Positions 20,176 to 40,636 of a DNA stretch of 64,000 bases are shown here, piece by piece. Below the pieces are notes generated by a model, which was given only the letters and a program-made list of their open reading frames with translations, was not told the DNA's origin and searched no databases. Within the stretch, counting starts at the first letter, position 1. The number at the start of each line of letters is the position of its first letter. The DNA comes from Candidatus Latescibacterota bacterium (lineage in GTDB: Bacteria; Latescibacterota; UBA2968; UBA8231): assembly GCA_963422735.1 (NCBI GenBank), contig OY730476.1:320001-384000 (forward strand). The letters run 5' to 3'. The position numbers and the translations under genes were made by a program.

Positions 20176-20184
20176 CATCATTTT

Positions 20185-21491: not shown

Positions 21492-21507
21492 TGGCATGCC
21501 ACTTGCA
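21492..21507 (+). promoter_or_regulatory. Sigma54 -24/-12 promoter of precursor 1
   Basis: TGGCATGCCACTTGCA (GG-N10-GC); IHF-like TTTCAATCTGTTA at 21440-21452. Confidence 0.85.
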
Positions 21508-21627: not shown

Positions 21628-21906
21628 ATGGACAGTCTTCGGGAATTCTTCACGTCGTCGAGCGGGTTGGCCCCGGCTCGGCAGGGGTTGGGACTCGGGT
21701 GGGTCATCAGCGCTCTTACGGGGGTCGCTATCCTGCTCGGGGCCAAGGAAGCCGAAGCCGGTAGTTGCCCGGGCGAACGGACAGATTGTTCTTGGCATGC
21801 CGGGTGCGCGGAAGTTTATCCGAATGAGCCGTTCCGGTGCTGCACCAAGAAGTTGGACGCCTACTGCGATGTGATTGAAGTAGTAAGTTGCTCCTGTGTG
21901 GCCTAA
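21628..21906 (+). CDS. Cys-rich secreted peptide precursor 1 (92 aa: 44-aa leader, 48-aa 8-Cys core)
   Basis: AAGGAG RBS; MDSLREFFTSSSGLAPARQGLGLGWVISALTGVAILLGAKEAEA-GSCPGERTDCSWHAGCAEVYPNEPFRCCTKKLDAYCDVIEVVSCSCVA; leader shared with 24763 and 40787. Confidence 0.9.
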   Translation: MDSLREFFTSSSGLAPARQGLGLGWVISALTGVAILLGAKEAEAGSCPGERTDCSWHAGCAEVYPNEPFRCCTKKLDAYCDVIEVVSCSCVA

Positions 21907-22062: not shown

Positions 22063-24213
22063 ATGATGTTGCTATGGGCCGTTGTTACAGGTGTTGTGCT
22101 GTGGGGTGGCTCCGCCGAGGCGGTTAGGTGGGATTTCGACGATGGGACAACGCAGGGGTGGTCTGCCAAAGAAGCGCTTATATGGGGTGGGACGCGTGAA
22201 TTGCACCTGTTTCCGGGGGGGGTCGAAGACGGCGTGTGGCGGATCAATGTCGATCCCTCGGTCACCAAGGGTCATTATCTCGCGCCGAGTGTCGAATTGA
22301 TTTCTTCGACCATCGGGTACGATTCAGGTCTATTCGACCAAGTGCGCATCCGGTTCCGCACCGTCCATCACCACCCTACGGTCGGTAATGTTTCAATCGA
22401 GTGGACCAACGAGCACAACGCCCTGTCTTCAGGTTGGGATCCAAAAGATCCGCCGTCTGGAAGCCGGTTTCAAAGCCCCGTACAACCAATCGTTTATACC
22501 ACCGAGTGGCAGGAAGTGGTGCTCTTCTTGGCAGGTCAAGACGAGAAGATATGGCAGGGGCTGTTAAAAGATATTCAGCTAGGTTTTAGACTGGATGAGA
22601 ACAAAACAGGGGCAACTCGGTCGTCTACCGAGGTGGTCGGGTGGTTTGAGATCGACTGGATCGAGTTGACCGGCGTGGAAGAGATGATACAGGGAGAACT
22701 ACCGCCGCCGCACGTAGAGTACTTTCGCTTTGCTGAGGCCAAACTTTTTGCGCCGCCGGTGTTCTATCCGATTGCGCCGGGCATAGGGGAAGACGCTCTA
22801 GGTCTAGATAAGATCGGCGTCTTGGCGGACTTGGATGGCGATGGCGACTTAGACTTTTTCGCCCCCTATAATTACCGTCAACAGGGGCGATGGTGGTCTA
22901 AAACAGGGTGGCTGATGGCCCTCAATGACGGGCAAGGCGTCTTGGAACTAGGGCGTATAGAGGAAGTATCTGCTACAGAGCAGCCTAGTACCGATGCGGC
23001 AACTGGAACGACGACCGTCTCCGGGGTGATCATAGAGGTGATTGGTGCTGATTTGACCGGCGATGGTAAAGACGAAATCGCGATATCTGCAAGCAACAGT
23101 GGGCAAGTGACAGAAGTTTGGTCTGTGGGGCCGGAACTCCAAGTCGAGGTGCTCGTGCAGATAGAGGATCGATGGATCCGAGATGTGGCGGATTGGGATG
23201 GCGACGGCCGGGTCGAACTATTTGTAGGGGATATTACGTTTGAAGGAAGCACGTTAGAGGTCTGGGATGTCGAGCAGGGGGTGTGGGCCGCCGATGAGAT
23301 TGCGACTGCCAAAAACCATGCGCCCGCTCAGATTGGCGACTTTATCGGCGATGGGGCATTAGACGTGTTGTGGCTACCGATCGCTGGGCGAGTGAATACG
23401 TGGATTGTGCAGGCCTTGAGCGAGGAGTTTCAGAGAGGCGAGATATTTGAATTCGATGAGAGGAAAGGGCTGTTAGGGATGGGCGATTTTGATGGCGATG
23501 GACAGGTGGATTTCCTCACCGAATTCGCACTTGATCGAATCGAAGGTAGGAAGGGACTGGTTTTGCAGAGGAAGCGCGCCGGAGATCGCTTAGCAGCCGA
23601 GGTGCTCTACGATGATCGGCTGTTTCTGCGCTCGTCAGTGCGGGTGCGCGACCTCAACGCCGATGGAGTCGAGGACTGGGTATTTATCGGCGGGGATCGC
23701 GCCTCGGGCTTTGGGGTGTTTGTCGAATGGGGCGGGAGCGTCAACCCTACTCAAGCAGGGGAGCGGCATCGTCTGGAGGGCAGTGGGCGATACGTGCTGT
23801 GTGGGGATATGGATAACGACGGCGATCTCGACTTGGTGGTGTTAGATCCGATATGGGGTGGAGTGCATCTGCTCAAGAGTTCACTGGCCGAGCAGCCAAC
23901 GGCGGTGCTGACGCCGGCGGTAGCGCGACCGGTGCAGCATCGGCTGGGCGACAGCTATCCCAATCCGTTCAATCCGGCGGTGGTGCTGCCCCTTGAGTTG
24001 GCAACGGACGCGGCGGGAGTGTCGCTGACGGTGTATGACGTGTTGGGTCGTCGGGTGCGGCGGGTGTGGGACGGGTCGCTGGGGTCGGGAACGCATCGGT
24101 TTACGTGGGATGGCCGCGACGCGGCGGGCAAGGCGGTGGCCGCCGGGGTGTATATCTATCAGGTCGAAATCGACGGGCAGGTGGAAGCGAAGAAGACGAC
24201 GAAGCGGCCTTGA
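22063..24213 (+). CDS. Secreted FG-GAP/VCBS-repeat protein with C-terminal FlgD-Ig/T9SS-like domain, cassette 1
   Basis: Signal peptide (AEA), WDFDDGTTQGW domain, repeated D-x-D-G-D-G motifs, YPNPFNP..WDGRD..GVYIY. Confidence 0.9.
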   Translation: MMLLWAVVTGVVLWGGSAEAVRWDFDDGTTQGWSAKEALIWGGTRELHLFPGGVEDGVWRINVDPSVTKGHYLAPSVELISSTIGYDSGLFDQVRIRFRTVHHHPTVGNVSIEWTNEHNALSSGWDPKDPPSGSRFQSPVQPIVYTTEWQEVVLFLAGQDEKIWQGLLKDIQLGFRLDENKTGATRSSTEVVGWFEIDWIELTGVEEMIQGELPPPHVEYFRFAEAKLFAPPVFYPIAPGIGEDALGLDKIGVLADLDGDGDLDFFAPYNYRQQGRWWSKTGWLMALNDGQGVLELGRIEEVSATEQPSTDAATGTTTVSGVIIEVIGADLTGDGKDEIAISASNSGQVTEVWSVGPELQVEVLVQIEDRWIRDVADWDGDGRVELFVGDITFEGSTLEVWDVEQGVWAADEIATAKNHAPAQIGDFIGDGALDVLWLPIAGRVNTWIVQALSEEFQRGEIFEFDERKGLLGMGDFDGDGQVDFLTEFALDRIEGRKGLVLQRKRAGDRLAAEVLYDDRLFLRSSVRVRDLNADGVEDWVFIGGDRASGFGVFVEWGGSVNPTQAGERHRLEGSGRYVLCGDMDNDGDLDLVVLDPIWGGVHLLKSSLAEQPTAVLTPAVARPVQHRLGDSYPNPFNPAVVLPLELATDAAGVSLTVYDVLGRRVRRVWDGSLGSGTHRFTWDGRDAAGKAVAAGVYIYQVEIDGQVEAKKTTKRP

Positions 24214-24621: not shown

Positions 24622-24637
24622 TGGCACGCCATTTGCA
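24622..24637 (+). promoter_or_regulatory. Sigma54 -24/-12 promoter of precursor 2 and probably of the maturation operon
   Basis: TGGCACGCCATTTGCA, an exact match to TGGCACG-N4-TTGCW; IHF-like site at 24570-24582. Confidence 0.9.
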
Positions 24638-24762
24638 TAGCATAACTGTTGAAGGCGCTGCCGATGCCGACGAAAGAAGGTATCGGTCGTTGCTCAACGC
24701 TGACTTCCAGTATGGTATCGGCCTCAGGCTGCGGACGTACTGGGCAACGAAGGAGATGGACC

Positions 24763-25044
24763 ATGGACAGTCTTCGGGAATTCTTCACGTCGTCGAGCGG
24801 GTTGGCCCCGGCTCGGCAGGGGTTGGGACTCGGGTGGGTCATCAGTGCTCTTACGGGGGTCGCTATCCTGCTCGGGGCGAAAGGAGCTGCAGCCGATTGC
24901 GACAAAAGAAAGTGGACAAGGGACTTCGGGTACAGCGCAGGTTGCGACGAGGCCACGAAAGGGGCAGCGGCGAAGATGTGTCAGGACTGTTGGCTGGACT
25001 CGAAATGCAAAACAAGGTGCGGGGGGAACTACTGCTGCGCTTGA
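24763..25044 (+). CDS. Cys-rich secreted peptide precursor 2 (93 aa; 49-aa 8-Cys core)
   Basis: Same leader ending AKGAAA, core DCDKRKWTRDFGYSAGCDEATKGAAAKMCQDCWLDSKCKTRCGGNYCCA; AAGGAG RBS. Confidence 0.9.
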   Translation: MDSLREFFTSSSGLAPARQGLGLGWVISALTGVAILLGAKGAAADCDKRKWTRDFGYSAGCDEATKGAAAKMCQDCWLDSKCKTRCGGNYCCA

Positions 25045-25100: not shown

Positions 25101-25140
25101 GGGGCCGGCTTAATCGCTGCGATTGAGCCGGCCCCCTTTT
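25101..25140 (+). terminator. Hairpin (terminator/attenuator-like) between precursor 2 and its FG-GAP gene
   Basis: GGGGCCGGCTTAATCG-CTG-CGATTGAGCCGGCCCC followed by CTTTT; homologous stems at 21966-22012 and 41111-41151. Confidence 0.7.
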
Positions 25141-25200
25141 CCCTTCGTACTTACGGACAGTGCCCAGTCTTCTGGAAATGTCTCTTATGGAGGTAGTGTC

Positions 25201-27360
25201 ATGCTGAAATTTGTCGCTGTTGCATGGGTTGTGCTGGGCAGTAGCCTCGCCGAGGCGGTTAGGTGGGATTTCGACGATGGGACGACGCAAGGGTGGACCG
25301 CCAAAGAAGCGCTTATATGGGGTGGTACGCGTGAATTTAACCAGTTTCTGGGGGGGGTCGAAGACGGCGTGTGGCGGATCCGGATTGATCCGGCCGCTAC
25401 CAAGAGTTTGCACACCTCCAGGTCGGGTGTCGAAGTGATTTCTTCGGCGATCGGGTATGATTCGGACCTGTTCGATCAAGTCCGCATCCGGTTCCGCACC
25501 GTCCATGACCGTCCTACGGAAGGTACTTTTTCTATCGCGTGGGAAAACGCTTCCGATTTTAATCTGGATGCTGAATATGAAGCGTTAACGTCTTTTATAC
25601 ATCTCGCCCAGCAAATAGTCTATACCACCGAGTGGCAGGAATTGGTGGTATCCTTGGCGGGTCAAGCCGGATGGCAGGGCCTGTTAGAAAATATTCAGCT
25701 AAGTTTCATATCTTTTGAAGTGGTCGAGTCGTTTGAGATTGACTGGATCGAGTTGACCGGCGTGGAAGAGATGATACAGGGAGAACGGCCGCCGCCGCCC
25801 GTAGAGTACTACTTTCGCTTTGCGGGGGCCGGCCTTTTTGCGCCGCCGGTGTTCTATCCGATTGCGCCGGGCATAGGGGAAGCACCTATTGGAGGAAGGT
25901 ATCTAGGGGATAAGGTATGGGGCAACGTGTTGACGGACTTGGATGGCGATGGCGACTTAGACCTGTTCGGCCTCTGGAAAACGCGAACGGAAATACCACA
26001 TGGGTATGAGGATAAAGCGGGCTGGCTGATGGCTGTCAATGACGGGCGAGGGGCCTTGGAACGTGGGCCTGTTATAGAAGAAGTAATGGCTGCAGGTTGG
26101 GTGGTCTTAAAGATGCTGAGTGCTGATTTGACCGGCGATGGTAAGGACGAAATCGCGATATCACGAAGCAACCGGGAACCCTCGACCGAAGTGTGGTCTA
26201 TCGGGCCGGAACTCCAAATCGAGGTGCTCGTGCAGTTCGATAGCGGGCTCCATAATGTGGCGGATTGGGATGGCGACGGCCGGGTTGAGTTATTTACGGG
26301 GGGGGCTATGTTTGAAGGCTCTTTAGAGGAAGTGATCGCGGGTACGGCGAAGTTTTCAAGCAGGTTAGCGGTCTGGGAGGTCGAACAGGGCGTGTGGACT
26401 TCCGAGGAAGTGGCGGCTTCCCAAGACTATACGCCCTCTCATATCGGCGACTTTACTGGCGATGGGACCCTCGATGTGTTTTGGGTGCCGATCGCCGGGG
26501 AAGCCCGTGGGATGAACAGGTGGATTGTGGGAGCCTTGGGCGAGGAGCATCAGAAAGGAGAGATATTTGAATTCGATGAACGGAAGGGGCCGTTAGGGGT
26601 GGGCGATTTTGATGGTGATGGGCAGGTGGATTTCCTCACCGAGTTCACATCCCCTCAATTCAAAGATGGCATAGAAAGAATTAGCATAGAAGGTAGTAAG
26701 GGGATCGTCTTGCAGAGAAAGGGAGCCGGGGATCGCCTCGAAGCGGAGGTGCTGTATGATGATCGGCTGTTTCGGCGCTCGCCGGTGATGGTGCGCGACC
26801 TCAACGCCGATGGAGTCGAGGACTGGGTGTTTATCGGCGGGGATCGCGCCTCGGGCTTTGGGGTGTTTGTCGAATGGGGCGGGAGCGTCAACCCTACTCA
26901 AGCAGGGGAGCGGCATCGTCTGGAGGGCAGTGGGCGATACGTGCTGTGTGGGGATATGGATAACGACGGCGATCTCGACTTGGTGGTGTTAGATCCGATA
27001 TGGGGTGGGGTGCATCTGCTTGAGAGTTCACTGGCCGAGCAGCCAACGGCGGTGCTGACGCCGGCGGTAGCGCGACCGGTGCAACATCGGCTGGGCGACA
27101 GCTATCCCAATCCGTTCAATCCGGCGGTGGTGCTGCCCCTTGAGTTGGCAACGGACGCGGCGGGAGTGTCGCTGACGGTGTATGACGTGTTGGGTCGTCG
27201 GGTGCGGCGGGTGTGGGACGGGCCGCTGGGGTCGGGAACGCATCGGTTTACGTGGGATGGCCGCGACGCGGCGGGCAAGGCGGTGGCTGCCGGGGTGTAT
27301 ATCTATCAGGTCGAAATCGACGGACAGATAGAAGCCAAGAAGACGACCAAGCTACCGTAA
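25201..27360 (+). CDS. Secreted FG-GAP/VCBS-repeat protein with FlgD-Ig/T9SS-like domain, cassette 2
   Basis: ATG 25201 after GGAGGT; paralog of 22063..24213. Confidence 0.9.
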   Translation: MLKFVAVAWVVLGSSLAEAVRWDFDDGTTQGWTAKEALIWGGTREFNQFLGGVEDGVWRIRIDPAATKSLHTSRSGVEVISSAIGYDSDLFDQVRIRFRTVHDRPTEGTFSIAWENASDFNLDAEYEALTSFIHLAQQIVYTTEWQELVVSLAGQAGWQGLLENIQLSFISFEVVESFEIDWIELTGVEEMIQGERPPPPVEYYFRFAGAGLFAPPVFYPIAPGIGEAPIGGRYLGDKVWGNVLTDLDGDGDLDLFGLWKTRTEIPHGYEDKAGWLMAVNDGRGALERGPVIEEVMAAGWVVLKMLSADLTGDGKDEIAISRSNREPSTEVWSIGPELQIEVLVQFDSGLHNVADWDGDGRVELFTGGAMFEGSLEEVIAGTAKFSSRLAVWEVEQGVWTSEEVAASQDYTPSHIGDFTGDGTLDVFWVPIAGEARGMNRWIVGALGEEHQKGEIFEFDERKGPLGVGDFDGDGQVDFLTEFTSPQFKDGIERISIEGSKGIVLQRKGAGDRLEAEVLYDDRLFRRSPVMVRDLNADGVEDWVFIGGDRASGFGVFVEWGGSVNPTQAGERHRLEGSGRYVLCGDMDNDGDLDLVVLDPIWGGVHLLESSLAEQPTAVLTPAVARPVQHRLGDSYPNPFNPAVVLPLELATDAAGVSLTVYDVLGRRVRRVWDGPLGSGTHRFTWDGRDAAGKAVAAGVYIYQVEIDGQIEAKKTTKLP

Positions 27361-27969: not shown

Positions 27970-29127
27970 ATGGATATGTTGCTGAATGAGATTGATCTCG
28001 TCTTCTTGCTAGAGTGGGGCCTGCTGTGCTCGATCATGGCTGTTGCCGCCTACACAACTTATACGGACGTCAGCCATAGAGAGATTCCCAATTCGGCTAT
28101 TGGGACTTTGCTCGGTCTGGGGCTGATAGGGCAGATGGGATTGTGGATATTGGGTGAGGTTGCACTCGTATCGATCGGGCTATCATTGCTGCTGGGATTT
28201 GCCGTAGGCTACCTGTTGTTTATGTATGGCTTCTGGGGGGCGGGGGATGCCAAGTTGTATTGGGCCATGGTCGCGGCGATGCCTAGTACGTTGTTTGGTC
28301 AGAAGTGGCCGACTCTCTCCTTGGCCTTTTTTTCGCTAGATACCCCTATTTGGTCCTTGTTGGTCAATACCATTTTGACCAATACCGTTTTTCTTGTAGT
28401 CCTTCTGGTCCTCCATAAACCCGCAAGACCCATCGCAATCTCTGCAAGCGAGCATAGAAAGGGCATGAATTGGGGCTGGCTGCGCTCGGGGTTTGAAGCG
28501 GCAGGATTGAGCGGGTTGGTGTTAGGTGGGACGACGTTGGTCGGCGTGACCTTGACCCTCGCCGAGGCTATCGTAGTGGGGGCTGTGCTCTATTTGATCC
28601 ATGAAGAGCGGACCAAGGCGCCCAATAGAATTATTTGGGTCGTTCCCGGGCTTGTAATCGGTGTCTTTAGCACCATCAGCACCGGGAACTACCTGATCTG
28701 TCTCTTGCTTTGGGCCGTGCTGTGGGGCATACAGACCGTCTATGTGTATATCCACGCTCTCGAGTACCAGAAGTTTGTGCAGCCGGTTTCTATCGATGCC
28801 TTACAGCCGGGCATGGTGCTACATCAGTCGATTTATGAAGCCCCTGCGGAAGGGCGAGTCGAAGTAGTTTCGTTCGGCGAGCAGAGTAGAGATACGCGGG
28901 AGCGAATAGGTCGAATGGGCAAGCCGTTGACCGGGCGAAAAGTGCGCCAGCTAAAAGACCTACAAAAAAAGGGATTGTTCCGCGAATGGGACGATCAGGT
29001 AGAAGTTGAACTGTCGCTGCCCTTTGCGCCGGTCTTGATGGTTGGCGTCGGCCTAACTCTGATATGGCCCGGAAGTATGGTAAGGCCAGTCAATCGGTGG
29101 ATTCAGCCGTTGTTCGATGCGTTTTAG
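27970..29127 (+). CDS. A24-family prepilin/preflagellin peptidase (GxGD aspartyl protease), FlaK/PibD-like
   Basis: YTDVSHREIPN (Asp1), WGAGDAKL (GxGD), multiple TMs, C-terminal LQPGMVL..LPFAPVLMVG; no PilD N-terminal Cys/methylase domain. Confidence 0.85.
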   Translation: MDMLLNEIDLVFLLEWGLLCSIMAVAAYTTYTDVSHREIPNSAIGTLLGLGLIGQMGLWILGEVALVSIGLSLLLGFAVGYLLFMYGFWGAGDAKLYWAMVAAMPSTLFGQKWPTLSLAFFSLDTPIWSLLVNTILTNTVFLVVLLVLHKPARPIAISASEHRKGMNWGWLRSGFEAAGLSGLVLGGTTLVGVTLTLAEAIVVGAVLYLIHEERTKAPNRIIWVVPGLVIGVFSTISTGNYLICLLLWAVLWGIQTVYVYIHALEYQKFVQPVSIDALQPGMVLHQSIYEAPAEGRVEVVSFGEQSRDTRERIGRMGKPLTGRKVRQLKDLQKKGLFREWDDQVEVELSLPFAPVLMVGVGLTLIWPGSMVRPVNRWIQPLFDAF

Positions 29128-29145: not shown

Positions 29146-29700
29146 ATGAAAGCTATGCGCTCGAAACCGCAAGCGACGATGCTGTTGCTGTCAACGGTGC
29201 TGGGCATCCTCTTGGGGACCAGTATATTGTTGGCCACAAAAATCAACAATCCTCCAATCGCCCCAATGGCGACGAGCTTGGAAAACCTGTTGGGTGAACG
29301 CGTCCCGGAGTACAAACTCGAACAACTGAACGGTGCTCCAATCTCGACCCATCTGTACAAGGGCGAATCCCACCTGCTGGCCTTTACGCTGCCGAGTTGT
29401 GATGCCTGTGACACCATGTACCCCATTTTAAGGGAAGCGGCTACAGATATTCCCATTTTGATGATTGCCAATACACGAGAAGGACTGATGGAAAAGGTCG
29501 CCGAACACGCCTTGGCCTTTCCCATTGCTGTAGATACACTGCTGCTGACGATGGAAGAGCTCAACATCACGAATTTCCCGACCGCGCTCTTGGTGGATGG
29601 GGAACAAAGGATCGTCGAGGCCGTCAGGGGCGGCGGCTTCCCGATTGAGAACATTGTACAGTCCGCGCAGAAAGTACTTGAAAAAGAGAGGACACAATGA
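29146..29700 (+). CDS. Membrane-anchored TlpA/MauD-like thioredoxin-fold protein
   Basis: N-terminal TM, PSCDAC, cis-Pro loop NFPTALLVD. Confidence 0.8.
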   Translation: MKAMRSKPQATMLLLSTVLGILLGTSILLATKINNPPIAPMATSLENLLGERVPEYKLEQLNGAPISTHLYKGESHLLAFTLPSCDACDTMYPILREAATDIPILMIANTREGLMEKVAEHALAFPIAVDTLLLTMEELNITNFPTALLVDGEQRIVEAVRGGGFPIENIVQSAQKVLEKERTQ

Positions 29701-30227
29701 GGGCCGATCAAAAGCATTGGAAGATCGCCGGGCTTGTGAGCGTGGTCTTGTTGCTGGTGCTGATTTTCAAGGAGAAGTCTGAGGAACCAGCGGGGATCGT
29801 CTGGAGCGAGGAGGATACGAAGCGTTCTGAGTATCTATCTGAAGGAACAGACGCCCCTGACTTTGAATTGCCCTCTATGCAAGGGGGCCACGTCCGTCTC
29901 AGCCGTTTTAAGGGGCAGCGGGTAGGGCTGATTTTTGTAACCCCTACCTGCCCGTATTGCAACGACTTGGAACGTTACTTGGTAGAGTACGACCTTCCCC
30001 AAGAGAGCCATTTGCTACTGGTCAGCCAAGGTACGAAAGACCAAGTGCAGCAAATCGTCGAAAACCACGACTTGGCGATACCCGTTTTGGTCGACTCAGC
30101 GGGTGCGGTTGCCCAAGCCTACCGGATCGGGGGTGTGCCGCAGTTTTACGTGGTGAGCAAGGAGGGAAGCATTGCTTCTTTTGCGCGAGGGATGCCGCCG
30201 GTATGGGAAGCCGTGCAAAAGCTATAA
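29697..30227 (+). CDS. Membrane-anchored TlpA/ResA-like thiol-disulfide oxidoreductase
   Basis: GTDAPDFELP, PTCPYC, GVPQFYVV; ATGA overlap with the upstream gene. Confidence 0.85.
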   Translation: MRADQKHWKIAGLVSVVLLLVLIFKEKSEEPAGIVWSEEDTKRSEYLSEGTDAPDFELPSMQGGHVRLSRFKGQRVGLIFVTPTCPYCNDLERYLVEYDLPQESHLLLVSQGTKDQVQQIVENHDLAIPVLVDSAGAVAQAYRIGGVPQFYVVSKEGSIASFARGMPPVWEAVQKL

Positions 30228-30248: not shown

Positions 30249-31454
30249 ATGGAAATCATTCCGTTAATTGCCGAACGCGACGTAGCGATGCAACGGGCGT
30301 GGGTCGCACAAAATCGAGATGTACGCACCCAAGCGAAGGCTTGCCTCCTTTTGGGACGCTATTACAAGGAACAAGGTGAACTCGACAAGGCTGAAGCCCT
30401 GTACCGAAGAGCCCTTGCGAAAGCACGGCCGTTGCAGGCACATGAGATGGAAGCCGATGCGTGCAGCGGCTTGGGGCTTATGTACCAAGTCAAGGGACGG
30501 ATGGACGAGGCGGTTGACTATCTCAATAAAGCCTTTGAGATCAATAGGGAATGCCGCGATGAGCAGCGTCTGGCCGTCAACTATAGCAATAGAGGCTTTG
30601 TCGCCCATCTCCAAGGAAAAATTGGAGAAGCACAAGACCTGCACATACGCGCTCAGAAACTTCACGAGGTGTCGGGCAATAGAGCCTATTGGGCGGAAGA
30701 ATGCGGCAACTTGGGTCAGTTGGCACTCCAGCAGAACAAACTGGAGGAGGCCGAGGGCTACTTTCAGCAGGGGCTGAACATTTGTGAAGAATTCGGCGAT
30801 CTGCAAGGTATTTCCGGCCACTATCAAGGCTTGGGACTGGTCTATCTCGGACAGCAGCGTTTGGCCGAAGCCGAAGGCATCCTTAAAAAAGGCCTTGCGA
30901 TCGAGGAGCGGCTCCAGCGCGACGAGGGATTGGCTCATCATTACAGCGTCTTGGGGGGCGTATATAGCCGAGCAGGTCGGTTTAATGAGGCGGAAACCAT
31001 GTACCGTCGGACGCTGGCCATCCAACGCAAATTAGGCCATAAACAGTTTGAAGCCCGCACCATAAGCGGTCTGGGGCAGATGCTATGGGAGAAAGGCGAC
31101 CTGCGAGAAGCTACGGCGTCGTTTCAGCAGGCTAGGGCACTGTTTGACGCGATCGGAGACAACAAAGGCGGGGCGGTACAAGCGGCTCTTTTGGGCGATA
31201 CCTATATGGACGTTGAAAACTTTCATGCGGCAGAGGGGGCGTATCGGCAGGCGGTGCAGCTATTTGAGAAAGTATCGGACTTGGAGGCCGTAGCCGACGT
31301 TAGAGTTCGTTTGGGGAGGGTCTATGCTTCGAATCAGGCTCCTTATGATGCCTTGCTTCAGTGGCGGCAAGCACTGGAATTATACCGCGAACTCCAGCTA
31401 GACGACCGGGTTGAGTTCGTAGAAGAGCTTCTGAGGACGAGCGGCAGAACGTAA
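30249..31454 (+). CDS. Tetratricopeptide-repeat protein, no signal peptide
   Basis: About nine TPR-like units (LG..Y..G...EA...Y..AL). Confidence 0.9.
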   Translation: MEIIPLIAERDVAMQRAWVAQNRDVRTQAKACLLLGRYYKEQGELDKAEALYRRALAKARPLQAHEMEADACSGLGLMYQVKGRMDEAVDYLNKAFEINRECRDEQRLAVNYSNRGFVAHLQGKIGEAQDLHIRAQKLHEVSGNRAYWAEECGNLGQLALQQNKLEEAEGYFQQGLNICEEFGDLQGISGHYQGLGLVYLGQQRLAEAEGILKKGLAIEERLQRDEGLAHHYSVLGGVYSRAGRFNEAETMYRRTLAIQRKLGHKQFEARTISGLGQMLWEKGDLREATASFQQARALFDAIGDNKGGAVQAALLGDTYMDVENFHAAEGAYRQAVQLFEKVSDLEAVADVRVRLGRVYASNQAPYDALLQWRQALELYRELQLDDRVEFVEELLRTSGRT

Positions 31455-31462
31455 AGGACAAA

Positions 31463-33943
31463 ATGATGTTCAAAGCGATGCGGCAGCGGACAGTAGCCGG
31501 ACTCTTCAAGGTCATCAGCCGTCTTGAGGAAACGGAACGCTTGCGTCGTCTAGAGCGAGACCGAGTTTCAATACTGATCTTTTTTCACGGTTTTGATCGC
31601 GTTTCCGCGCATCGTGCTTTGGTAGTGGGTACGACGCTCCGCCGCCGAGGATACCGAGTCGAGTTTGCGGGCACGGGTTCGTTTGCCGACCAGTTCCGGC
31701 AAGCGGGCTTCCCACTGCACGACCTCGACACGCCGATACAAGACTTGGGAGCAGTACTGGATTTTGGCGCGAATGAAGCAGACTACCATACATTCATCAA
31801 TCAAAGCGTGGAAGCCGAGCGAGCGCTGATTGGTCGCTTGAAGCCCGACCTCGCAATAGTGGACTCCCGTCCCACGCTGCGCTTGGCGGCGACATTGGAA
31901 GGGGTTGATGTGGTTTGGATAAAGTCGGCCTATACTATGCCCGAATACTCCTACCCTATTCACTCACCTGATTTCATGCGTACTTGGGATGATATAATTA
32001 AACGTACCCATCGAGAATGGGCTTATGGGGTGACATGTAGGGAACTGTACCTGCTCTGCGATATTCCAGCGGTTCATCCACTGGGACCGGAGACGCCTGC
32101 CAACTACTTCTTCGTCGGGCCGCTACTCGAGGGGCTCGATGCGGAGGAGCAAGGTGCGGTGGAGCGGGAGGGGGTGTACTGGGATCTCAGAATGTTGGGA
32201 GCCGATTGGCCCTCCATTCAAGAGGCCCGGCAAAAGCTGGCAATGAAAGGGATTCGGCAGTGGGTGATTCCACCTGTTGGGGCGCGTATCGACCCAATAG
32301 AAAACTGCGAGATCGTCGATCCTAATTTTTTGCGGCAGGCCGCCTCCCAAGCGGCTGTCTTTGCCGGCGGCGGAGATCCCGGTTTCTTTTACCAAGCTCT
32401 ATTCAAGGGCATACCGGTCATTGGGCTTCCCACGAATGATACGCAAGAGTACTTCATCAACCGCCTGCAAGCACTGGGGCTGGGTATCAAATTGAGCTAC
32501 CGAGATTTCACCCGACCGGCGGCTCTCGTGCAAAGCGTTGAGGGGCTGTTAAATCACTATGCGATATTCGCTAGACGATGCTGTGCTCTCGCCGGTGATA
32601 TACGGGAATGGCAGGACGCAAATCGCGTCGCGGATATAGTTGATGTGTACTGGATGAGTCGTACGGAGGAACGCCGAATAGATTCGCATTATCAGATGAG
32701 CCAACGCGACTTTGCCCGGCAGTTGTCAGTGAGCACACTGCTCCGCGACGAGCAAATTGAAGAGATGCTTGAGAACGGGCGAAATCGCCAGATGCCGCAT
32801 GAAGTGCGACAAGACGGTATCTGGTACGATCGCCTCGATTCGTGGAACTGGCTGTACGACCACGACGCTCGCTTTTTTGCGTGTGATTACGAGGCGCGTG
32901 AGGAGATGCGTTCGTTCTTCATTCACAAAGAAAAGGGTGCACTCCATTCAGCCATGGAAAGCCAGCGCTTGCTGCTGACGTACACCTTCACCTTGTCTGC
33001 GGCCGAGGATACAACACACGATGCGCGGATATTTCTGCCCTACCCAATAACCACCGACTTTCAGAAGGATATAAAGCTGCTATCTTGCCATCCTACGGGG
33101 ATGCAAGAACACTTTTTGCCACACTCGGGTTTTTTCTATGGCTACCCTACCGGTTGTGATTTTAGCTCCGGTAAGGCATATACGTTTTCTTACGAGTGTG
33201 AATTGACGGTTTATTCGAGAGTGATGGGTGCTACCGGGACAATGGAGACGATCACGTCCGAACAGTTCGAGCTCTACACCATCGTTGATAAATCCTTGGC
33301 CGAACATCCACTCGTCCGCCGTTGTTGGGAGGATGTGGGCATAGACGAAGGGTTGAGCGACGTAGAAAAAGCCCGTCTATTATATGGTTACTTGGCCAGA
33401 AATAAGCACTTCAAGAAAACCAAAGATAGCTGCCAATGCTATCCGTGTAGCACCCTAAAAGCACTGGCGGACGACGGGGGACATTGTATTACGTTATCCC
33501 GTGCCTTTATTGCTCTTTGCCGTCTGCAAAACATACCCGCCCGCGAGCAGGCCGGAGCCATAGCAGTCAACCCGCTAGGGTCGAGCCGGTACGAGAACCG
33601 GACGTATAACGAAGTGGTGTTTGGGCACACGTGGGCTGAAATTTTTATCTCGGGTCTCGGATGGATCCCTGTGGAATTTCACGGTATCAGTATTGGTACT
33701 CCAGCACTCACGGAGATCAATGTGCAAAGTGAGGCATTGCGCCATAAGGTCTGGGAGAATAGCGAGCCGTATTTTGACTTTTACTTTGGCCATTTGGACT
33801 GCTTCCACATCGTATGCTCAAACGCTGTCGCCAAGGAAATACCACAAGTCCTTATATGTGAAGATACAGATAATGGCTTCCCCCGCGTTCATCAACTGGA
33901 TTCTCTGAGGGAGGAATGCCGCTTAGTCTTTGAATGTATATAA
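31463..33943 (+). CDS. GT-B glycosyltransferase (GT1/MGT-like) fused to a transglutaminase-like domain
   Basis: N-half: AHRAL..LRRRGYRVEF, LKPDLAIVD, FVGPL, QALFKGIPVIGLP..TQE; C-half: GGHCITLSRAFIALCR..IPARE, GHTWAEIF..GWIPVE. Confidence 0.8.
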   Translation: MMFKAMRQRTVAGLFKVISRLEETERLRRLERDRVSILIFFHGFDRVSAHRALVVGTTLRRRGYRVEFAGTGSFADQFRQAGFPLHDLDTPIQDLGAVLDFGANEADYHTFINQSVEAERALIGRLKPDLAIVDSRPTLRLAATLEGVDVVWIKSAYTMPEYSYPIHSPDFMRTWDDIIKRTHREWAYGVTCRELYLLCDIPAVHPLGPETPANYFFVGPLLEGLDAEEQGAVEREGVYWDLRMLGADWPSIQEARQKLAMKGIRQWVIPPVGARIDPIENCEIVDPNFLRQAASQAAVFAGGGDPGFFYQALFKGIPVIGLPTNDTQEYFINRLQALGLGIKLSYRDFTRPAALVQSVEGLLNHYAIFARRCCALAGDIREWQDANRVADIVDVYWMSRTEERRIDSHYQMSQRDFARQLSVSTLLRDEQIEEMLENGRNRQMPHEVRQDGIWYDRLDSWNWLYDHDARFFACDYEAREEMRSFFIHKEKGALHSAMESQRLLLTYTFTLSAAEDTTHDARIFLPYPITTDFQKDIKLLSCHPTGMQEHFLPHSGFFYGYPTGCDFSSGKAYTFSYECELTVYSRVMGATGTMETITSEQFELYTIVDKSLAEHPLVRRCWEDVGIDEGLSDVEKARLLYGYLARNKHFKKTKDSCQCYPCSTLKALADDGGHCITLSRAFIALCRLQNIPAREQAGAIAVNPLGSSRYENRTYNEVVFGHTWAEIFISGLGWIPVEFHGISIGTPALTEINVQSEALRHKVWENSEPYFDFYFGHLDCFHIVCSNAVAKEIPQVLICEDTDNGFPRVHQLDSLREECRLVFECI

Positions 33944-34195
33944 GGGAGCTGACGTTACGCAGTGCTTTGTCGCGGACGAACCAGTCCATCAGGTGGTCCC
34001 CCGCCGGTGGCCCCCGCTGGATGTCACGCCTAAAGGCGCGGTGAAGCCTGCTTCCGCAGGAAGGATCCTCGCCCGGACCGAGGTTCGAGCCCAAGGCTCG
34101 TCATTCCCTCGAAAGTGGGGAGGCAGCGGGGGGAGGCAGGGCGAAACCACGCCTTGGGCGGTAAACTGCGTAACGCCAGTAAGGGAGCGAGCTCA

Positions 34196-35239
34196 ATGGA
34201 TATTTCTGTCGTCATCGCTACACACAATCAGCGCGATCGGTTGCGGCTTGTGTTAAGCGGCTTGGCCGTTCAAACATTCTCCGAGGGTCCGTTTGAGGTT
34301 ATAGTGGTGGACGATGGCAGCACGGACGGAACGGGGGAGTTTCTGCGTACATATAAGCAACTTCCCATAAAAGCTATTCCCTTGCATACCAATGTAGGAC
34401 GCGGTCGAGCGCGAAATATCGGTATAGCGGAAGCGCGGGGAGACGTAGTCGCCTTTTTAGATGGAGACGCGCTACCGGATCCCGATTGGTTGGCTCAACA
34501 TTGGCGACTATTTCAGCGCTACAACGGTGTAACAAGCGGGTTCCAGTATTGCTTGCCTTGCTTGGAGTACGTTGAGGATCCGCAAAGTGGTCTTCCTTGG
34601 GAGGACGTTCCGGCCTCGGTTACTCAGAGCATGCGTACGTATCCAGACGAATTTCGGGTGACCGAAGCCATGGTACAGTCCGATTTCGGCGCGATTGATC
34701 GACTGGCTCAAGAGGGTGGGTATCCCTTCCCGGAGTTAAAATTAATGCAAGATCAAGTACAACTGCTCTTTGACAACGTGCCCGATTCGCCGATTGGTTG
34801 GATCAGTTTTTATCCACACAATGCTTCGGCCCCGCGCGTCGCCCTTGAGGAGGTCGGTGGATTTGACGAAGAGCTGCTCCATTCTGAAGGATGGGATTTA
34901 GCCTATCGCCTCATGCGGAATGGCTACAACATGCGCTTTGCAACCAAGGCGCAGAGCTATCACCTGTATCACCACCACGACTTTTTTAGTCCACAGAATG
35001 CGTTCGCAGAATCGCAAAAACGGCGTAGGGCGATAGCCCATATAGTGAAGAAAAACGAGGATTCTCGGCTGTATCTAATCGAATTTTGGCTCGCTTCTCT
35101 ATGGCCGGACTGCCTAATTCCAGAGGAGATGCGCCTCAACAACCTGATGGAATTTCACGAAACGCATCAGACTATCTCGTGCGGTGAAATGGCAGAGCGT
35201 ACATTAATGCTCGATCTTCATCCCTTGAGAGGGGCATAA
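34196..35239 (+). CDS. Family 2 glycosyltransferase
   Basis: ISVVIATHN, VVDDGSTDGT, ARNIG, FLDGD, VGGFDEE..EGWDLAYRL, HLYH; ATG 34196. Confidence 0.9.
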   Translation: MDISVVIATHNQRDRLRLVLSGLAVQTFSEGPFEVIVVDDGSTDGTGEFLRTYKQLPIKAIPLHTNVGRGRARNIGIAEARGDVVAFLDGDALPDPDWLAQHWRLFQRYNGVTSGFQYCLPCLEYVEDPQSGLPWEDVPASVTQSMRTYPDEFRVTEAMVQSDFGAIDRLAQEGGYPFPELKLMQDQVQLLFDNVPDSPIGWISFYPHNASAPRVALEEVGGFDEELLHSEGWDLAYRLMRNGYNMRFATKAQSYHLYHHHDFFSPQNAFAESQKRRRAIAHIVKKNEDSRLYLIEFWLASLWPDCLIPEEMRLNNLMEFHETHQTISCGEMAERTLMLDLHPLRGA

Positions 35240-37291: not shown

Positions 37292-40200
37292 ATGAGCGCC
37301 ATATCCTTTGAGCATATGTTGAGCCGCCAGTACACGGTCTTCGATGGGCTGGGTGGGATGCACGTGGAAGACATCTACCAAGACCGCCAAGGCTTTCTCT
37401 GGATCGCCACGGCCGACGGTGGCGTCAGCCGGTTCGACAGTGTGCGCTTCGATACCTTTAACACCAAAGATGGCCTGCCCAATCTGACGGTGATGGCCAT
37501 TGCCGAGGAAGCCGACGGGCGGCTGCTGTTGGGCACGTTTGGCGGGGGGATCGCCGCCTACGACGGGCGCGGCTTTCAGGTGTACACCACCGAGCACGGC
37601 CTGCCTTCCAATGAGATCGTGAGCCTGCAACCGCAGCCGGATGGCTCGATGCTGGTGCTGACCAACGAGGGGGTAGCGTGGTTTGCCGAGGGGGGCTGTA
37701 CAAGGAGCATAACCGATGTTGGCGGCCAACCGTTGGGGCGGGTGTACGATATGGCCACTGACGCGGGCGGCACCACTTGGCTGGCCACGTGGGAGCGAGG
37801 TGTTCTCAGCTTGGATGGGCGGTGCATGGATACCGGCGACCGGGCGGTGCGATGGCCTTGGAAATTCGCCGAAGGTCCCTCTGGCCACCTGTGGATTGCC
37901 TTCCTGTACATGAACCCCGAAACCTTTATCGGCCGCTACGATGCGCGAGACGAGCAGTTCGCATTCATCCATGTGGATTGCGAAGCCGAGAGGGCTGCGC
38001 AGAATGGGGTGCGGCATGTGCGGGTTGACGATAGGGGCTGGCTCTGGCTGGCGCGCCGAGGGGTGGTGGTACACACAGGTCAAGAGTGGCAGCAGGTTTC
38101 CGCCTCCCTGCCCGATATTGACTTTTCGGGTACGCGCCTGACGTACGAGGACCGCGAGGGCAATATATGGATCGGGCTTTGGGGCGGCGGGCTAATTTTT
38201 TGCGATCCGGCCAGCGTCCGGCTCTACACCGAAGCCAACGGCCTGCCGGACCGCGAGGTTCGCCACTTAGGCGAAGATTCTAAGGGGCGGATGTGGATCG
38301 GCACGATGGGGGGCATGGCCTGCATGGAAGAGGGGCAAATCCGTCCGCTCGATCAGTTTGAAACCGTTTCGGCGATGATGGTGGATAGCGCGGGGCAGGT
38401 CTGGAGCGGCGGGGACACCGGCCGGGTGTACAAGTGGGAAGGCCAGACGCCGCGAGCGATCGCCGTGGATGAAGAAATCCACTCCGAAAAAATCACCGGG
38501 CTGTGCCAAGACGGGCAAGGGCGTATATGGATTGGCACGTTCCGCGGCCACTTCGGCTGGGTAGAAGCCCATCGCTTCACCCTCCTCGACGAGTGGGAAG
38601 GCGATGAATGCCGCGCCCTGCTGCGAAACCAAAACGGGGTATTCTGGATTGGTTTCTTCGGCAGAGTCCCGGCACTTTACTGGTACGAGGACGGTCATTT
38701 TCGCCCGGTGAAGATGGACGAGTTGGAGACGATCGTCTATGTCAATGTCTTGTGGGAGCACCAAAATGTCTTGTGGATCGGCACGGCTAAGGGGCTTTTC
38801 GCGCTCGACCACTCGTCGGGGCAGGTGCGCCACTTTACGACCGATCAGTTTGAGCGGTCGGCCAATGGCGTCTTGGCACTGGCGGCCGACCGCCAGGGCC
38901 ATATTTGGATTGGGACCAGTGGTGGGGGTGTGCTGCGCTACGACGGCGAGACCTTCCAAAGCATCCGCTTAGGGCCGTCTGCTCTCGTAAACATAGTCGA
39001 GGCTATTCTATGCGACCGCGATGGCCGGCTGTGGTTTGGGACGCGGGCCGGCTTGGTCGCCTACCAGCCCGGCGACACGCCGCCGCGCTTGGTGATCCGC
39101 GAGGTGATGGCCGGCACCCTCTTAGATGCGCCTGAAGCCGTCTCCTGCTCAGAGAGCATTCCCGAAATCCGCATCCACTTCCAAGGCATCAGCTTCCGCA
39201 CCGGCGTACAGCAGATGCGCTATCGCCACCGCTTGGTAGGCTACGGCCCGGCCGAACCGTGGAGCGCGTTCACCGCCGTCGATGCGGTGGTGTACACCGC
39301 CTTGCCGGTGGGCGACTACCGCTTTGAGGTGCAGACCATAGACCAAGATGGCCTGAAGTCCGAGGTGATCGGCTTGGACGTCCACATCCTCCCCGGCATC
39401 CAAACTGAACGCTTCCGCGCTTTCGGAAAGGCCCTGCGGGCGATCGAGTCTGTTGTGCCGAGCCGCAGTCGGGCCATGCAACAGGTGATGAAAAAAGTCT
39501 CGCAGGTCGCCGGGACCGATATGACCGTGCTGGTGCTGGGCGAGACCGGCACGGGCAAGGGGGTGCTCGCGCAGACCCTCCACGACACAAGCCGCCGCCA
39601 CGGGCATCCCTTTATCCAAGTCAATTGCGGGGCACTGCCCCCCGGGTTGGTCGAGAGCGAGTTGTTCGGCCACGAGAAAGGGGCCTTTACCGGCGCAAAC
39701 ACCCGCCAGATCGGGCGCTTTGAACTGGCCGATGGCGGCACACTCTTTCTGGACGAAATCGGCGATTTGCCGTTGGAATCTCAGCGGGTGCTGCTGCATA
39801 TCTTAGAGGAGAATACCCTGACCCGCGTCGGTGGCGAGCAGTCTGTGCGGGTGGATGTGCGGGTGATTGCGGCGACCAACCTCGACCTACAGCAGGCTAT
39901 CGAGGAGGGCACGTTCCGCAAAGACCTGTTTTATCGTCTGGAGGTCTTCGCGCTTGAGCTTCCGTCGCTGCGGCAGCGGTGCGAGGATATACCGGCTTTA
40001 GCCGCGCATTTTGTGGAGTGGTATGCCCAAGACCTCAAGCGGCCGGTGCCGACGATAGACGACGGGGTGGTCGCGCATTTGCAGGCGTACTCTTGGCCGG
40101 GGAATGTGCGCGAACTGGAGCACGTGATCCACCGGGCGGTCTTGCTGTGCGAGGGTGGTGTGATAGGGGTGGAGGAGGTGGCGTTGCCGGCTGAAGACGA

Positions 40201-40438
40201 GGAGGGGGACGAAAGCCAGTCGCCCCCGCCGGCTGAACGACAAACCGGGGATGCGGCCGAAGAGACGCCGCTTGTCGAAGGCATGGACGAAAAGCAGCAG
40301 ATTGTGGAGGCCCTGCAAGCGACCAATTGGATGATCTACGGCGAGCGCGGCGCGGCCAAACTGTTGGATATGAACCCGGAGAAACTGCGTTCCCGCATGC
40401 GCGTGTACGGGTTGCGGCGACCGAAAAAGTCGTCTTAA
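37292..40438 (+). CDS. Sigma54 enhancer-binding protein with N-terminal two-component-regulator beta-propeller and Y_Y_Y domains
   Basis: Many D..G.LWI(G/A)T..G repeats, YRHRLVG..VYTALPVGDYRFEVQ, GETGTGKG, GAFTGA, FLDEIGD, WPGNVRELEH, C-terminal HTH. Confidence 0.9.
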   Translation: MSAISFEHMLSRQYTVFDGLGGMHVEDIYQDRQGFLWIATADGGVSRFDSVRFDTFNTKDGLPNLTVMAIAEEADGRLLLGTFGGGIAAYDGRGFQVYTTEHGLPSNEIVSLQPQPDGSMLVLTNEGVAWFAEGGCTRSITDVGGQPLGRVYDMATDAGGTTWLATWERGVLSLDGRCMDTGDRAVRWPWKFAEGPSGHLWIAFLYMNPETFIGRYDARDEQFAFIHVDCEAERAAQNGVRHVRVDDRGWLWLARRGVVVHTGQEWQQVSASLPDIDFSGTRLTYEDREGNIWIGLWGGGLIFCDPASVRLYTEANGLPDREVRHLGEDSKGRMWIGTMGGMACMEEGQIRPLDQFETVSAMMVDSAGQVWSGGDTGRVYKWEGQTPRAIAVDEEIHSEKITGLCQDGQGRIWIGTFRGHFGWVEAHRFTLLDEWEGDECRALLRNQNGVFWIGFFGRVPALYWYEDGHFRPVKMDELETIVYVNVLWEHQNVLWIGTAKGLFALDHSSGQVRHFTTDQFERSANGVLALAADRQGHIWIGTSGGGVLRYDGETFQSIRLGPSALVNIVEAILCDRDGRLWFGTRAGLVAYQPGDTPPRLVIREVMAGTLLDAPEAVSCSESIPEIRIHFQGISFRTGVQQMRYRHRLVGYGPAEPWSAFTAVDAVVYTALPVGDYRFEVQTIDQDGLKSEVIGLDVHILPGIQTERFRAFGKALRAIESVVPSRSRAMQQVMKKVSQVAGTDMTVLVLGETGTGKGVLAQTLHDTSRRHGHPFIQVNCGALPPGLVESELFGHEKGAFTGANTRQIGRFELADGGTLFLDEIGDLPLESQRVLLHILEENTLTRVGGEQSVRVDVRVIAATNLDLQQAIEEGTFRKDLFYRLEVFALELPSLRQRCEDIPALAAHFVEWYAQDLKRPVPTIDDGVVAHLQAYSWPGNVRELEHVIHRAVLLCEGGVIGVEEVALPAEDEEGDESQSPPPAERQTGDAAEETPLVEGMDEKQQIVEALQATNWMIYGERGAAKLLDMNPEKLRSRMRVYGLRRPKKSS

Positions 40439-40620: not shown

Positions 40621-40636
40621 GGGCACGGAATGTGCA
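40621..40636 (+). promoter_or_regulatory. Sigma54 -24/-12 promoter of precursor 3
   Basis: GGGCACGGAATGTGCA (GG-N10-GC); IHF-like CTTCAACGCTTTA at 40570-40582, at nearly the same distance as in cassettes 1 and 2. Confidence 0.75.

Follow-up and report, generated by a model that had tools for sequence, protein, structure and literature searches.

In a stretch of 64,000 nucleotides from the genome of a Candidatus Latescibacterota bacterium (contig OY730476.1, positions 320,001 to 384,000; this whole stretch is called the window here), a gene for an aspartyl membrane peptidase of family A24 lies among genes for small exported proteins with cysteine-rich (Cys-rich) cores. On balance, we regard the enzyme as the dedicated leader peptidase of these precursors, uncoupled from type IV filaments: since an A24 peptidase without pilus machinery adjoins Cys-rich peptides that share one leader, this is its most likely role. 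A sequence-only reading of the window had proposed a leader peptidase, and comparative genomics now makes this likely, with co-occurrence in 32 of 32 peptidase genomes, precursors close to 18 of 20 peptidase genes, paralogues that match their own leader types and a recurrence of the pair in other phyla.

A24 peptidases are usually treated as core members of type IV filament systems. The subfamily described here, present in at least six phyla, adjoins small exported precursors with the same leader and not filament genes. If the proposed role is true, an aspartyl intramembrane-type protease joins the known leader peptidases of ribosomal peptides.

The peptidase and the absence of filament genes

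The peptidase gene is located in the middle part of the window:

27970..29127, + strand: FlaK-like A24 (GxGD) aspartyl membrane peptidase, 385 amino acids (aa), intact open reading frame (ORF), with PF01478, D33/D93 and the FlaK fold

By sequence, catalytic residues and fold this ORF is a member of family A24, and it is predicted to be catalytically competent. The match to Pfam PF01478 (Peptidase_A24) reaches 30.0 bits against a gathering score of 26.5 (32 bits in the six-frame scan of the genome). Both catalytic Asp motifs seen in the sequence-only reading are confirmed, D33 in YTDVSHREIPN and D93 in GAGDAKL; D33, G92, D93 and K95 do not vary across 26 aligned peptidases, archaeal relatives included (alignment A2). 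Alignments of 21 locus sequences and of 26 relatives likewise show D33 (YTD..R..PN), D93 (GD[AG]K) and a C-terminal P-F-x-P to be unvaried. A PilD-type N-terminal Cys-rich domain (DiS_P_DiS) has no Pfam match in the peptidase at E≤0.01, the only matches being PF01478 and a weak PF06819. Because no further Pfam domain was found at this threshold, the enzyme was taken to lack the extra PilD-type domain, as had been read from the sequence.

The FlaK/PibD-like C-terminus that had also been claimed is only partly upheld. The Arc_PepC domain (PF06819) matches residues 247-334 with E 0.0021 and 18.7 bits, below its gathering score of 23.4; the domain is present in the relatives P0050-P0052, and the structural model contains a beta-rich insert at ~270-347. 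This model, made with AlphaFold (AF2) from the 26-row alignment, has a mean predicted local distance difference test (pLDDT) of 68.9, a predicted template modelling score (pTM) of 0.63 and about 9-10 predicted helices. An exhaustive fold search with VIA-align placed FlaK (3S0X_B) first, with Z 12.7 and a root-mean-square deviation of 3.2 over 160 aligned residues, and the next entry at Z 6.8. Foldseek against the PDB returned nothing at E≤0.001, with FlaK at rank 12 (E 1.9, prob 0.66), and a profile search of PDB sequences with alignment A2 gave no match at E≤1. The enzyme also fails the score of the FlaK equivalog NF040695 in NCBIfam (21.2 bits against a cut-off of 330), and PADLOC matched none of the peptidase, precursor, redox and FG-GAP proteins. 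Because a basic loop follows D33, and by analogy with FlaK, the two catalytic Asp would be placed where helices 1 and 4 end on the cytoplasmic side.

The genome comprises 4.95 Mb in a single contig and is 95% complete by marker genes; the window covers its positions 320001-384000. The absence of a pilus ATPase, a platform protein and a classical pilin, noticed earlier for the window, holds there and extends to the whole genome: six-frame scans for the pilus ATPase (PF00437, T2SSE), the platform (PF00482, T2SSF) and the N-methyl pilin (PF07963) yielded no match, and the same scans were positive in control genomes (13/14, 13/14 and 8/14, respectively). The sole other A24 match is a 111-aa N-terminal paralogue fragment (3325199-3325507, L001) that adjoins transposase-like ORFs. 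Thus, the peptidase does not belong to a type IV filament machine, which is the systems-level mark of A24 enzymes.

Precursors with a conserved leader and variable cores

Three genes in the window encode the candidate substrates:

21628..21906, + strand: precursor 1, 92 aa; leader with F7, G13, ARQG20|L21 and W25, hydrophobic region, AEA44, Cys-rich core
24763..25044, + strand: precursor 2, 93 aa; same leader, DNA 95% identical over 132 nucleotides (nt); AAA; different Cys-rich core
40787..41059, + strand: precursor 3, 90 aa; leader of the same type (DNA 80% identical), AEA and again another Cys-rich core

A fourth precursor with this leader is encoded elsewhere in the genome. All three window genes have a GGAG-type ribosome-binding site before the ATG, and their products have the layout described earlier: an N-region of 20 residues ending in (A/V)PARQG, the stretch L-G/S-LGWVISAL, an AEA or AAA and the Cys-rich core. 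The hydrophobic stretch has 18-20 aa and is followed by AxA. The DNA pattern for ARQGLG occurs twice compared to 0.09 expected. The window precursors belong to no family in Pfam or NCBIfam (NCBIfam at E≤0.01), and a protein-atlas search with precursor 1 gave leads that were all below 0.9 (Poribacteria clusters at 0.87 and 0.85, an Archaea/Omnitrophota cluster at 0.75).

Three leader sets were compared: 34 precursors (alignment A1), 81 unique leaders from Latescibacterota loci and 28 leaders from outside the phylum. In alignment A1, F7 and G13 are present in 34/34, W25 in 33/34 (confirming the Trp at +5 that had been reported) and S10 in 32/34; position 20 is G in 30/34, R18 is found in 24/34 and Q19 in 22/34, and position 21 is L, F or I in all 34. 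As read from the alignment, the AxA site has A42 in 29/34 and A44 in 33/34. Among the 81 leaders, G13 is kept in 78, W25 in 74 and G20 in 56; A (5), S (2), T (1) and V (1) also occur at position 20, and 8 more cells are misaligned, with A or S before an inserted residue. The N-regions are 20 to ~57 residues long and several are net acidic.

The leader is kept while the Cys-rich cores are hypervariable across copies, a layout of conserved leader and hypervariable core that is known from conotoxin genes. The regions upstream of precursors 1 and 2 are 96-99% identical. Comparison of 21100-21760 with 24261-24895 showed that the promoter, the 5' untranslated region (UTR) and the leader of the two genes are 95-99% identical and that the cores differ. 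Such near-identical leader regions next to differing cores suggest gene conversion or diversifying selection. A related observation was made in genome G102, where a protein with an ordinary short signal peptide (L050:12994-13395, - strand) ends in a Cys-rich tail that closely resembles the core of a precursor with the leader, encoded at another place of this genome (L077:238-537, - strand); thus, cores can move between leader types.

In relatives, the same leader is also fused to one to three Cys-rich modules and a C-terminal sorting domain of the type IX secretion system (T9SS):

L038:8047-8817, leader/Cys-rich/T9SS fusion
L040:19402-19998, leader/Cys-rich/T9SS fusion
L060:9306-10283, leader/Cys-rich/T9SS fusion
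L061:9371-10216, leader/Cys-rich/T9SS fusion
L062:7255-8160, leader/Cys-rich/T9SS fusion
L062:9272-10273, leader/Cys-rich/T9SS fusion

Peptidase and precursors occur together in the Latescibacterota

The phylum survey covered 168 genomes, searched for the peptidase at E≤1e-5 and with the 34-precursor profile at E≤1e-3. The peptidase was found in 32 and precursors in 38 of them; every one of the 32 peptidase genomes also has precursors, and 130 of the 136 peptidase-free genomes have none. The genomes surveyed are related to one another, therefore the counts given here and those for the loci below are not independent events. The neighbourhoods (20 kb) of 20 peptidase genes, taken from 13 genomes, were compared: 18/20 loci have one or more leader-bearing precursors within 10 kb, 18/20 have TlpA-like genes and 15/20 a gene for a protein with a flavin mononucleotide (FMN)-like domain.

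Two paralogue types of the peptidase exist, which are ~40% identical to each other (75-86% identity for type-1 peptidases). Type-1 peptidases adjoin type-1 leaders and type-2 peptidases adjoin type-2 leaders, and this is also the case at L042, where both clusters lie side by side. The genome with the window contains a second, related cluster at 1708594-1712569 (L006), with the gene order peptidase, FMN-like protein, two redoxins, precursor and FG-GAP protein. The type-2 peptidase is split here: its C-terminal piece (1708594-1708989) lies just upstream of the second cluster and the N-terminal piece, the 111-aa fragment at L001, 1.6 Mb away.

Precursor matches can be numerous and spread over several places in a genome (20 in G130, 13 each in G140 and G145, 11 in G144), and one peptidase probably serves many dispersed precursors in these four genomes. 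The data point to a large family of hypervariable, disulfide-rich secreted peptides in Latescibacterota and Poribacteria that reaches 20 copies in a genome; possible functions are interference, adhesion or host interaction.

Decayed remains were seen in three genomes without the peptidase. In G134 and G141, which belong to the same genus, the precursor-like genes encode long proteins fused to T9SS domains, whose leaders are shortened, altered or devoid of the AxA, and in G091 the redox genes survive as short ORF fragments only. We counted this decay in favour of the leader-peptidase role.

A homologous leader and related peptidases in radical-SAM clusters

A HMMER scan of 1.84 billion representatives recovered 309 relatives of the peptidase at E≤1e-3, of which 64 remain at 1e-10 and 18 at 1e-30; most of them have the full length of ~350-390 aa. 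The species-genome scan gave 79 peptidase loci, which besides Latescibacterota come from Poribacteria, Anaerolineales, Omnitrophica, Myxococcota, Cytophagia, Saccharibacteria and others as well as from Woesearchaeota, Nanoarchaeia, Aenigmatarchaeota and Undinarchaeota. The loci with the more distant relatives number 47 (L115-L161) and, apart from the Latescibacteria fragment L131, stem from other groups. Homologues of HxsB, HxsC4, HxsD or other SPASM proteins of the radical S-adenosylmethionine (radical-SAM) type are encoded at 30/47 of them and small proteins with a homologous leader at 27/47. Clusters of this type were found in DPANN archaea, Poribacteria, Chloroflexota, Omnitrophota, Myxococcota and Bacteroidota. 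At L151, HxsB reaches 379 bits (cut-off 370) and HxsD 45.6 (cut-off 50), next to an HxsC4-like protein and an HxsA3-like precursor of 40 bits; several precursors from these phyla match NCBIfam HxsA3 below its cut-off, with up to 40 bits against 65.

The leader outside the phylum reads K-K-x-L-x-x-F-x-x-x-E-x-G, then six residues, the hydrophobic stretch and often AxA. The cores carry His-Xaa-Ser repeats, Cys-rich motifs or other sequences, with ends like H-S-S-H-G-S-H or C-H-S-S repeats. In the 28 leaders of this set, E17 and G19 are present in 28/28 and G30 in 27/28; the position preceding the hydrophobic stretch holds S, N, A or T, and G in none of the 28. Alignment of the two leader profiles with hhalign covered 45 columns with a probability of 89.7% (E 1.9e-06) and paired G13 with G19. 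A hidden Markov model (HMM) built from Latescibacterota leaders only had reached just one Poribacteria match on iteration, and a second HMM was seeded with eight distant leaders.

No Hxs-type radical-SAM gene is present at the 52 loci L038-L057 and L083-L114, which are all from Latescibacterota except L107 (titled as a Rhodothermales metagenome-assembled genome), many of them duplicates. HxsB is absent from the genome with the window, the best match reaching 67.9 bits (cut-off 370) at 4.085 Mb, far from both clusters. As judged from the gene contents, leader and peptidase are the only parts common to redox-type and radical-SAM-type clusters, and the unvaried leader residues are retained where all other partners differ; thus, a peptidase that recognises and cuts the leader is the simplest explanation. 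In a quick tree of 69 peptidases (midpoint root; the window's own sequence, the duplicates L083-L114 and fragments with fewer than 280 profile positions left out), the TlpA-linked Latescibacterota enzymes form one clade (support 100). It groups (99) with radical-SAM-linked Poribacteria and Chloroflexota, opposite a mostly archaeal radical-SAM-linked clade.

It might be possible that the leader and the FlaK-like A24 peptidase constitute a portable and general module for export and maturation of modified peptides, hosted by bacteria and DPANN archaea and defined by the leader pattern F..E/S-x-G, 6-7 residues, hydrophobic stretch and AxA; we put this forward tentatively. A cut after the invariant Gly would unmask a Sec signal and thereby time export after modification. 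The module would mostly serve His-Xaa-Ser-type radical-SAM systems and would have been re-wired in Latescibacterota to the periplasmic flavoprotein/thioredoxin folding of hypervariable, conotoxin-like Cys-rich peptides paired with T9SS-exported FG-GAP proteins.

Processing model and alternatives

In the model we propose, the leader would consist of a cytoplasmic N-extension (L-x-E-F-x-x-S-x-S-G13 and 6-7 further residues), a hydrophobic segment and an AxA site of the signal peptidase I type. The precursor would be inserted by Sec with its N-terminus in the cytoplasm, the A24 enzyme would remove the N-extension by a cut at or near G13 or G20, and signal peptidase I would then cut after AxA and free the Cys-rich core into the periplasm. 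There, a membrane-anchored RnfG-like CxxC flavoprotein and two TlpA-like redoxins, all encoded in the operon of the peptidase, would form the disulfides of the core. Some cores may then leave the cell via T9SS, either because they carry a sorting domain themselves or perhaps together with the FG-GAP protein paired with them. We infer the occurrence, the site and the order of cleavage as well as the redox roles; the redox neighbours would fit oxidative folding of Cys-rich cores.

With the Asp pair at the cytoplasmic helix ends, the cut would be expected in the N-region on the cytoplasmic side or where this region meets the hydrophobic stretch. PilD/FlaK-type A24 enzymes cut exactly at the boundary before the hydrophobic stretch, and this geometry would favour G20; conservation in the leader alignments favours G13 over G20. 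The cut between G20 and L21 assumed in the sequence-only reading is doubtful, since position 20 is G in 30/34, 56/81 and 0/28 leaders of the three sets compared to 34/34, 78/81 and 28/28 for G13. Complex prediction with alignment A2 and leader residues 1-50 of alignment A1 gave 0.05 and 0.10 against a mark of 0.32, with no controls, and was used neither way.

Several observations weigh against a dedicated leader peptidase. Six genomes (G120, G134, G141, G065, G088 and G091) have a precursor match without a peptidase, and a renewed search of five of them with the peptidase profile gave no match (0/5). G088 (97% complete, one contig) has one precursor, which looks intact, and neither a peptidase nor a cluster next to it. 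Of the four near-identical peptidase copies in G102, two (L049 and L050) lack a precursor with the leader within 10 kb, and in the genome with the window the type-2 precursor persists despite the split type-2 peptidase. A class III signal consists of a short basic leader with a basic residue, Gly at -1 and then the hydrophobic stretch (+1 to about +20), with the basic residue at -2 in archaea and Glu at +5 in bacteria. Neither G13 nor G20 conforms to this pattern: G13 is located seven residues before the hydrophobic stretch and is preceded by acidic residues or Ser, and at position 20 relatives can have A, S, T or V, and leaders outside the phylum S, N, A or T. Several leaders are net acidic. 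In addition, AxA alone could export and release the core, therefore a second cut is not required a priori.

The enzyme might also act later than in our model. Eukaryotic GxGD proteases of the signal peptide peptidase (SPP) type cleave leftover signal peptides in the membrane; likewise, after release by signal peptidase I the A24 enzyme could cut the leftover leader, clearing it or freeing an N-terminal fragment to the cytoplasm, possibly as a feedback signal. Besides this precedent, the conserved part of the leader is the cytoplasmic N-extension, and a sigma-54 activator and sigma-54-type promoters are present in the cluster. However, the enzyme is A24/FlaK-like and not SPP-like in sequence and fold, the leader fragment has no link to the activator, and cleavage before release fits the same genomic evidence equally well. 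We consider an SPP role improbable.

Decidedly improbable is a cut at G20|L21 in the manner of a class III signal, after which the product would keep its hydrophobic N-terminus and be anchored like a pilin, with release at AxA being optional. R-Q-G directly precedes the hydrophobic stretch in all three window leaders, G20 and the hydrophobic position 21 are frequent in alignment A1 (30/34 and 34/34), and A24 enzymes cut at this boundary. This is opposed by the loss of G20 (56/81 in Latescibacterota, 0/28 elsewhere), by the nearly constant A44 (33/34), which shows the AxA to be almost always kept, and by a genome without assembly ATPase or platform. Moreover, proteins with T9SS sorting domains need a soluble periplasmic intermediate, and so the T9SS-fused members (L038:8047-8817, L040:19402-19998 and those at L060-L062) must become soluble. 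The conserved AxA (A at -1 in 33/34) and the T9SS fusions therefore make release by signal peptidase I likely, as had been suggested as an option, and an anchored pilin-like product unlikely.

We see just as little reason to assume that there is no proteolytic link, with the precursors as ordinary substrates of Sec and signal peptidase I with a long n-region and the A24 homologue acting on another membrane protein or serving as a non-proteolytic scaffold of the redox module. A canonical hydrophobic region with AxA does suffice for export, and precursors are present in a few peptidase-free genomes. The catalytic Asp pair is, however, unvaried across the family, the TlpA-like and FMN-like anchors are without a conserved Gly-hydrophobic site, and the pair of leader and peptidase recurs in radical-SAM clusters without a redox module.

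Export by twin-arginine translocation (Tat) with ARQGL as a degenerate Tat motif was rejected on the motif counts and is extremely improbable: TatC is present in the genome (235 bits) and R-R precedes the hydrophobic stretch in a minority of leaders (e.g. L041, L057, L075, L076, L078), but the residue after R18 is Q in 22/34 and R in 2/34, four leaders have E-Q, the unvaried F7 and G13 are not Tat determinants, and Cys-rich cores beside periplasmic thiol oxidoreductases fit unfolded export.

Comparison with known systems

The enzyme shares with FlaK/PibD the A24 match, the two unvaried Asp (the second in GxGD), the lack of a PilD-type N-terminal domain and FlaK as the best solved fold; an Arc_PepC-like insert matches weakly, below the gathering score. 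It differs in having more helices than FlaK, in a genome without filament ATPase, platform and pilin, and in the FlaK equivalog score (21 vs 330 bits). In contrast to FlaK/PibD substrates, the candidate substrates have AxA, an N-extension that is long, conserved and in many cases acidic, and at +5 a W in place of E. They also depart from type IV pilins and class III signals in general, with W at +5 in 33/34, Q at -2 in 22/34, AxA after the hydrophobic region and no N_methyl match in the genome. According to two papers, PibD also has non-pilin substrates, namely sugar-binding proteins (PMC4858521, PMC13705601), and type IV filament systems, which are rare in DPANN archaea, have four core components, with the class III signal peptidase among them (PMC13705601).

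The distant relatives connect the peptidase to the His-Xaa-Ser (HXS) system, which consists of HxsA with HxsB, HxsC and HxsD and has the variants HxsA3 and HxsC4: they sit in such clusters, and the leaders of HxsA3-like precursors are homologous. The genome with the window, in contrast, has no HxsB, HxsC or HxsD, its cores are Cys-rich instead of His-Xaa-Ser, and the window precursors have no NCBIfam HxsA match at E≤0.01. As described in PMC13128918, HxsA tested in E. coli is periplasmic and undergoes a non-canonical N-terminal cleavage that needs HxsB, HxsC and HxsD. The words peptidase and A24 do not occur in this paper, therefore the HXS system studied there seems to have no such enzyme. 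The A24 enzyme is a concrete candidate for the unexplained non-canonical N-terminal processing that is discussed for Hxs-type effectors (PMC13128918).

Signal peptides for Sec and signal peptidase I have in common with the leaders a hydrophobic region followed by small-x-small (A42 29/34, A44 33/34) and cargo bound for the periplasm or T9SS; here, the n-region has 20 to ~57 residues, is conserved and in many cases acidic, and an A24 enzyme accompanies it. Compared to TlpA/ResA and RnfG/NqrC systems, the cluster shares two membrane-anchored CxxC proteins of the thioredoxin fold and an RnfG/NqrC fold with a motif of the flavin-attachment type, but it lies outside cytochrome-maturation, Rnf and Nqr operons, has an extra unvaried CxxC in the FMN-like protein, and contains Cys-rich peptides and an A24 peptidase alongside.

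The term radical SAM does not occur in PMC4858521 or PMC13705601, and a 2023 review of leader proteases of ribosomally synthesised peptides that carry post-translational modifications (RiPPs) mentions neither prepilin nor A24 nor aspartic. Among the matches listed, no paper connects a peptidase of the prepilin/A24 kind with clusters for radical-SAM enzymes, RiPPs or Cys-rich peptides; the arCOG neighbourhood tables of PMC4858521 and PMC13705601 may already tabulate such neighbours.

Neighbouring genes and regulation

Each precursor gene is followed by a gene for a partner protein of 713-745 aa with FG-GAP repeats and a T9SS-type C-terminal sorting domain:

22063..24213, + strand: partner protein 1, 3' of precursor 1; signal peptide, FG-GAP repeats (FG-GAP_3), FlgD_ig; TIGR04183 31.5 bits (above 23)
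25123..27360, + strand: partner protein 2, 3' of precursor 2; listed start TTG 25123
41202..43343, + strand: partner protein 3, 3' of precursor 3

The true start of partner protein 2 is probably an internal Met just before the signal peptide. PorU is present in the genome (632 bits, cut-off 420). The FMN-domain protein, the peptidase and two TlpA-like CxxC redoxins form a tight gene row, and three genes downstream of it are kept in several related clusters, being syntenic (30249..35239) in L038, L039, L041 and L043:

27366..27956, + strand: membrane-anchored RnfG/NqrC-like FMN-domain protein, immediately upstream of the peptidase
29146..29700, + strand: TlpA/ResA-like membrane-anchored thiol:disulfide oxidoreductase 1 (CDAC)
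29697..30227, + strand: TlpA/ResA-like membrane-anchored thiol:disulfide oxidoreductase 2 (CPYC); AhpC-TSA 65.5 bits
30249-31454, + strand: tetratricopeptide repeat (TPR) protein
31463-33943, + strand: glycosyltransferase/transglutaminase-like protein
34115-35239, + strand: glycosyltransferase of family 2 (GT2)

In the FMN-domain protein, a CxxC (RHDIAC-x-x-C) and the motif DG[ILV][ST]GAT are unvaried in 13 homologues (alignment A3). Its match to Pfam FMN_bind reaches 16.4 bits, below the cut-off of 22; the AF2 model (pLDDT 80.7) has RnfG (7zc6_G) as best Foldseek match with E 4.7e-05, and ranks 1-17 are all RnfG or NqrC. A possible role of this protein is that of a flavin-linked oxidase of thiols in the periplasm, feeding both TlpA-like redoxins. 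TlpA-like and FMN-like N-terminal anchors were considered as peptidase substrates as well and rejected, no conserved Gly-hydrophobic site being found across their homologues.

Upstream of the precursors, elements resembling sigma-54 promoters are located, and a possible activator is encoded inside the cluster:

21492..21507, + strand: sigma-54-type -24/-12 element, 121 nt upstream of precursor 1; differs from TGGCAC-N5-TTGCW by 1 mismatch
24622..24637, + strand: sigma-54-type -24/-12 element, 126 nt upstream of precursor 2; the window's only match with 0 mismatches
40621..40636, + strand: weaker sigma-54-type element, 151 nt upstream of precursor 3; 2 mismatches
37292..40438, + strand: sigma-54-dependent activator with Reg_prop/Y_Y_Y sensor domains; Sigma54_activat 233 bits, Reg_prop 142 bits

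The pattern is not enriched in the window (27 matches with up to 2 mismatches, 31.4 expected). The activator is a candidate regulator of the precursors. Its first ~850 nt are duplicated upstream at 19378-20175, and 300 aligned nt (19328-19627 and 37242-37541) are 99% identical. The duplicate is directly followed by a C-terminal fragment of an FG-GAP/T9SS gene (20430-21041). This arrangement (19328-21041 compared to 37242-38100) was either left behind by a rearrangement or results from a chimeric assembly of a region rich in repeats. Furthermore, two copies of a DUF4159 gene (35243-36583 and 43590-44933) flank the regulator and the third precursor cassette. They are 99% identical over the first 300 aligned nt and 80% near the end, and DUF4159 genes recur in related clusters.

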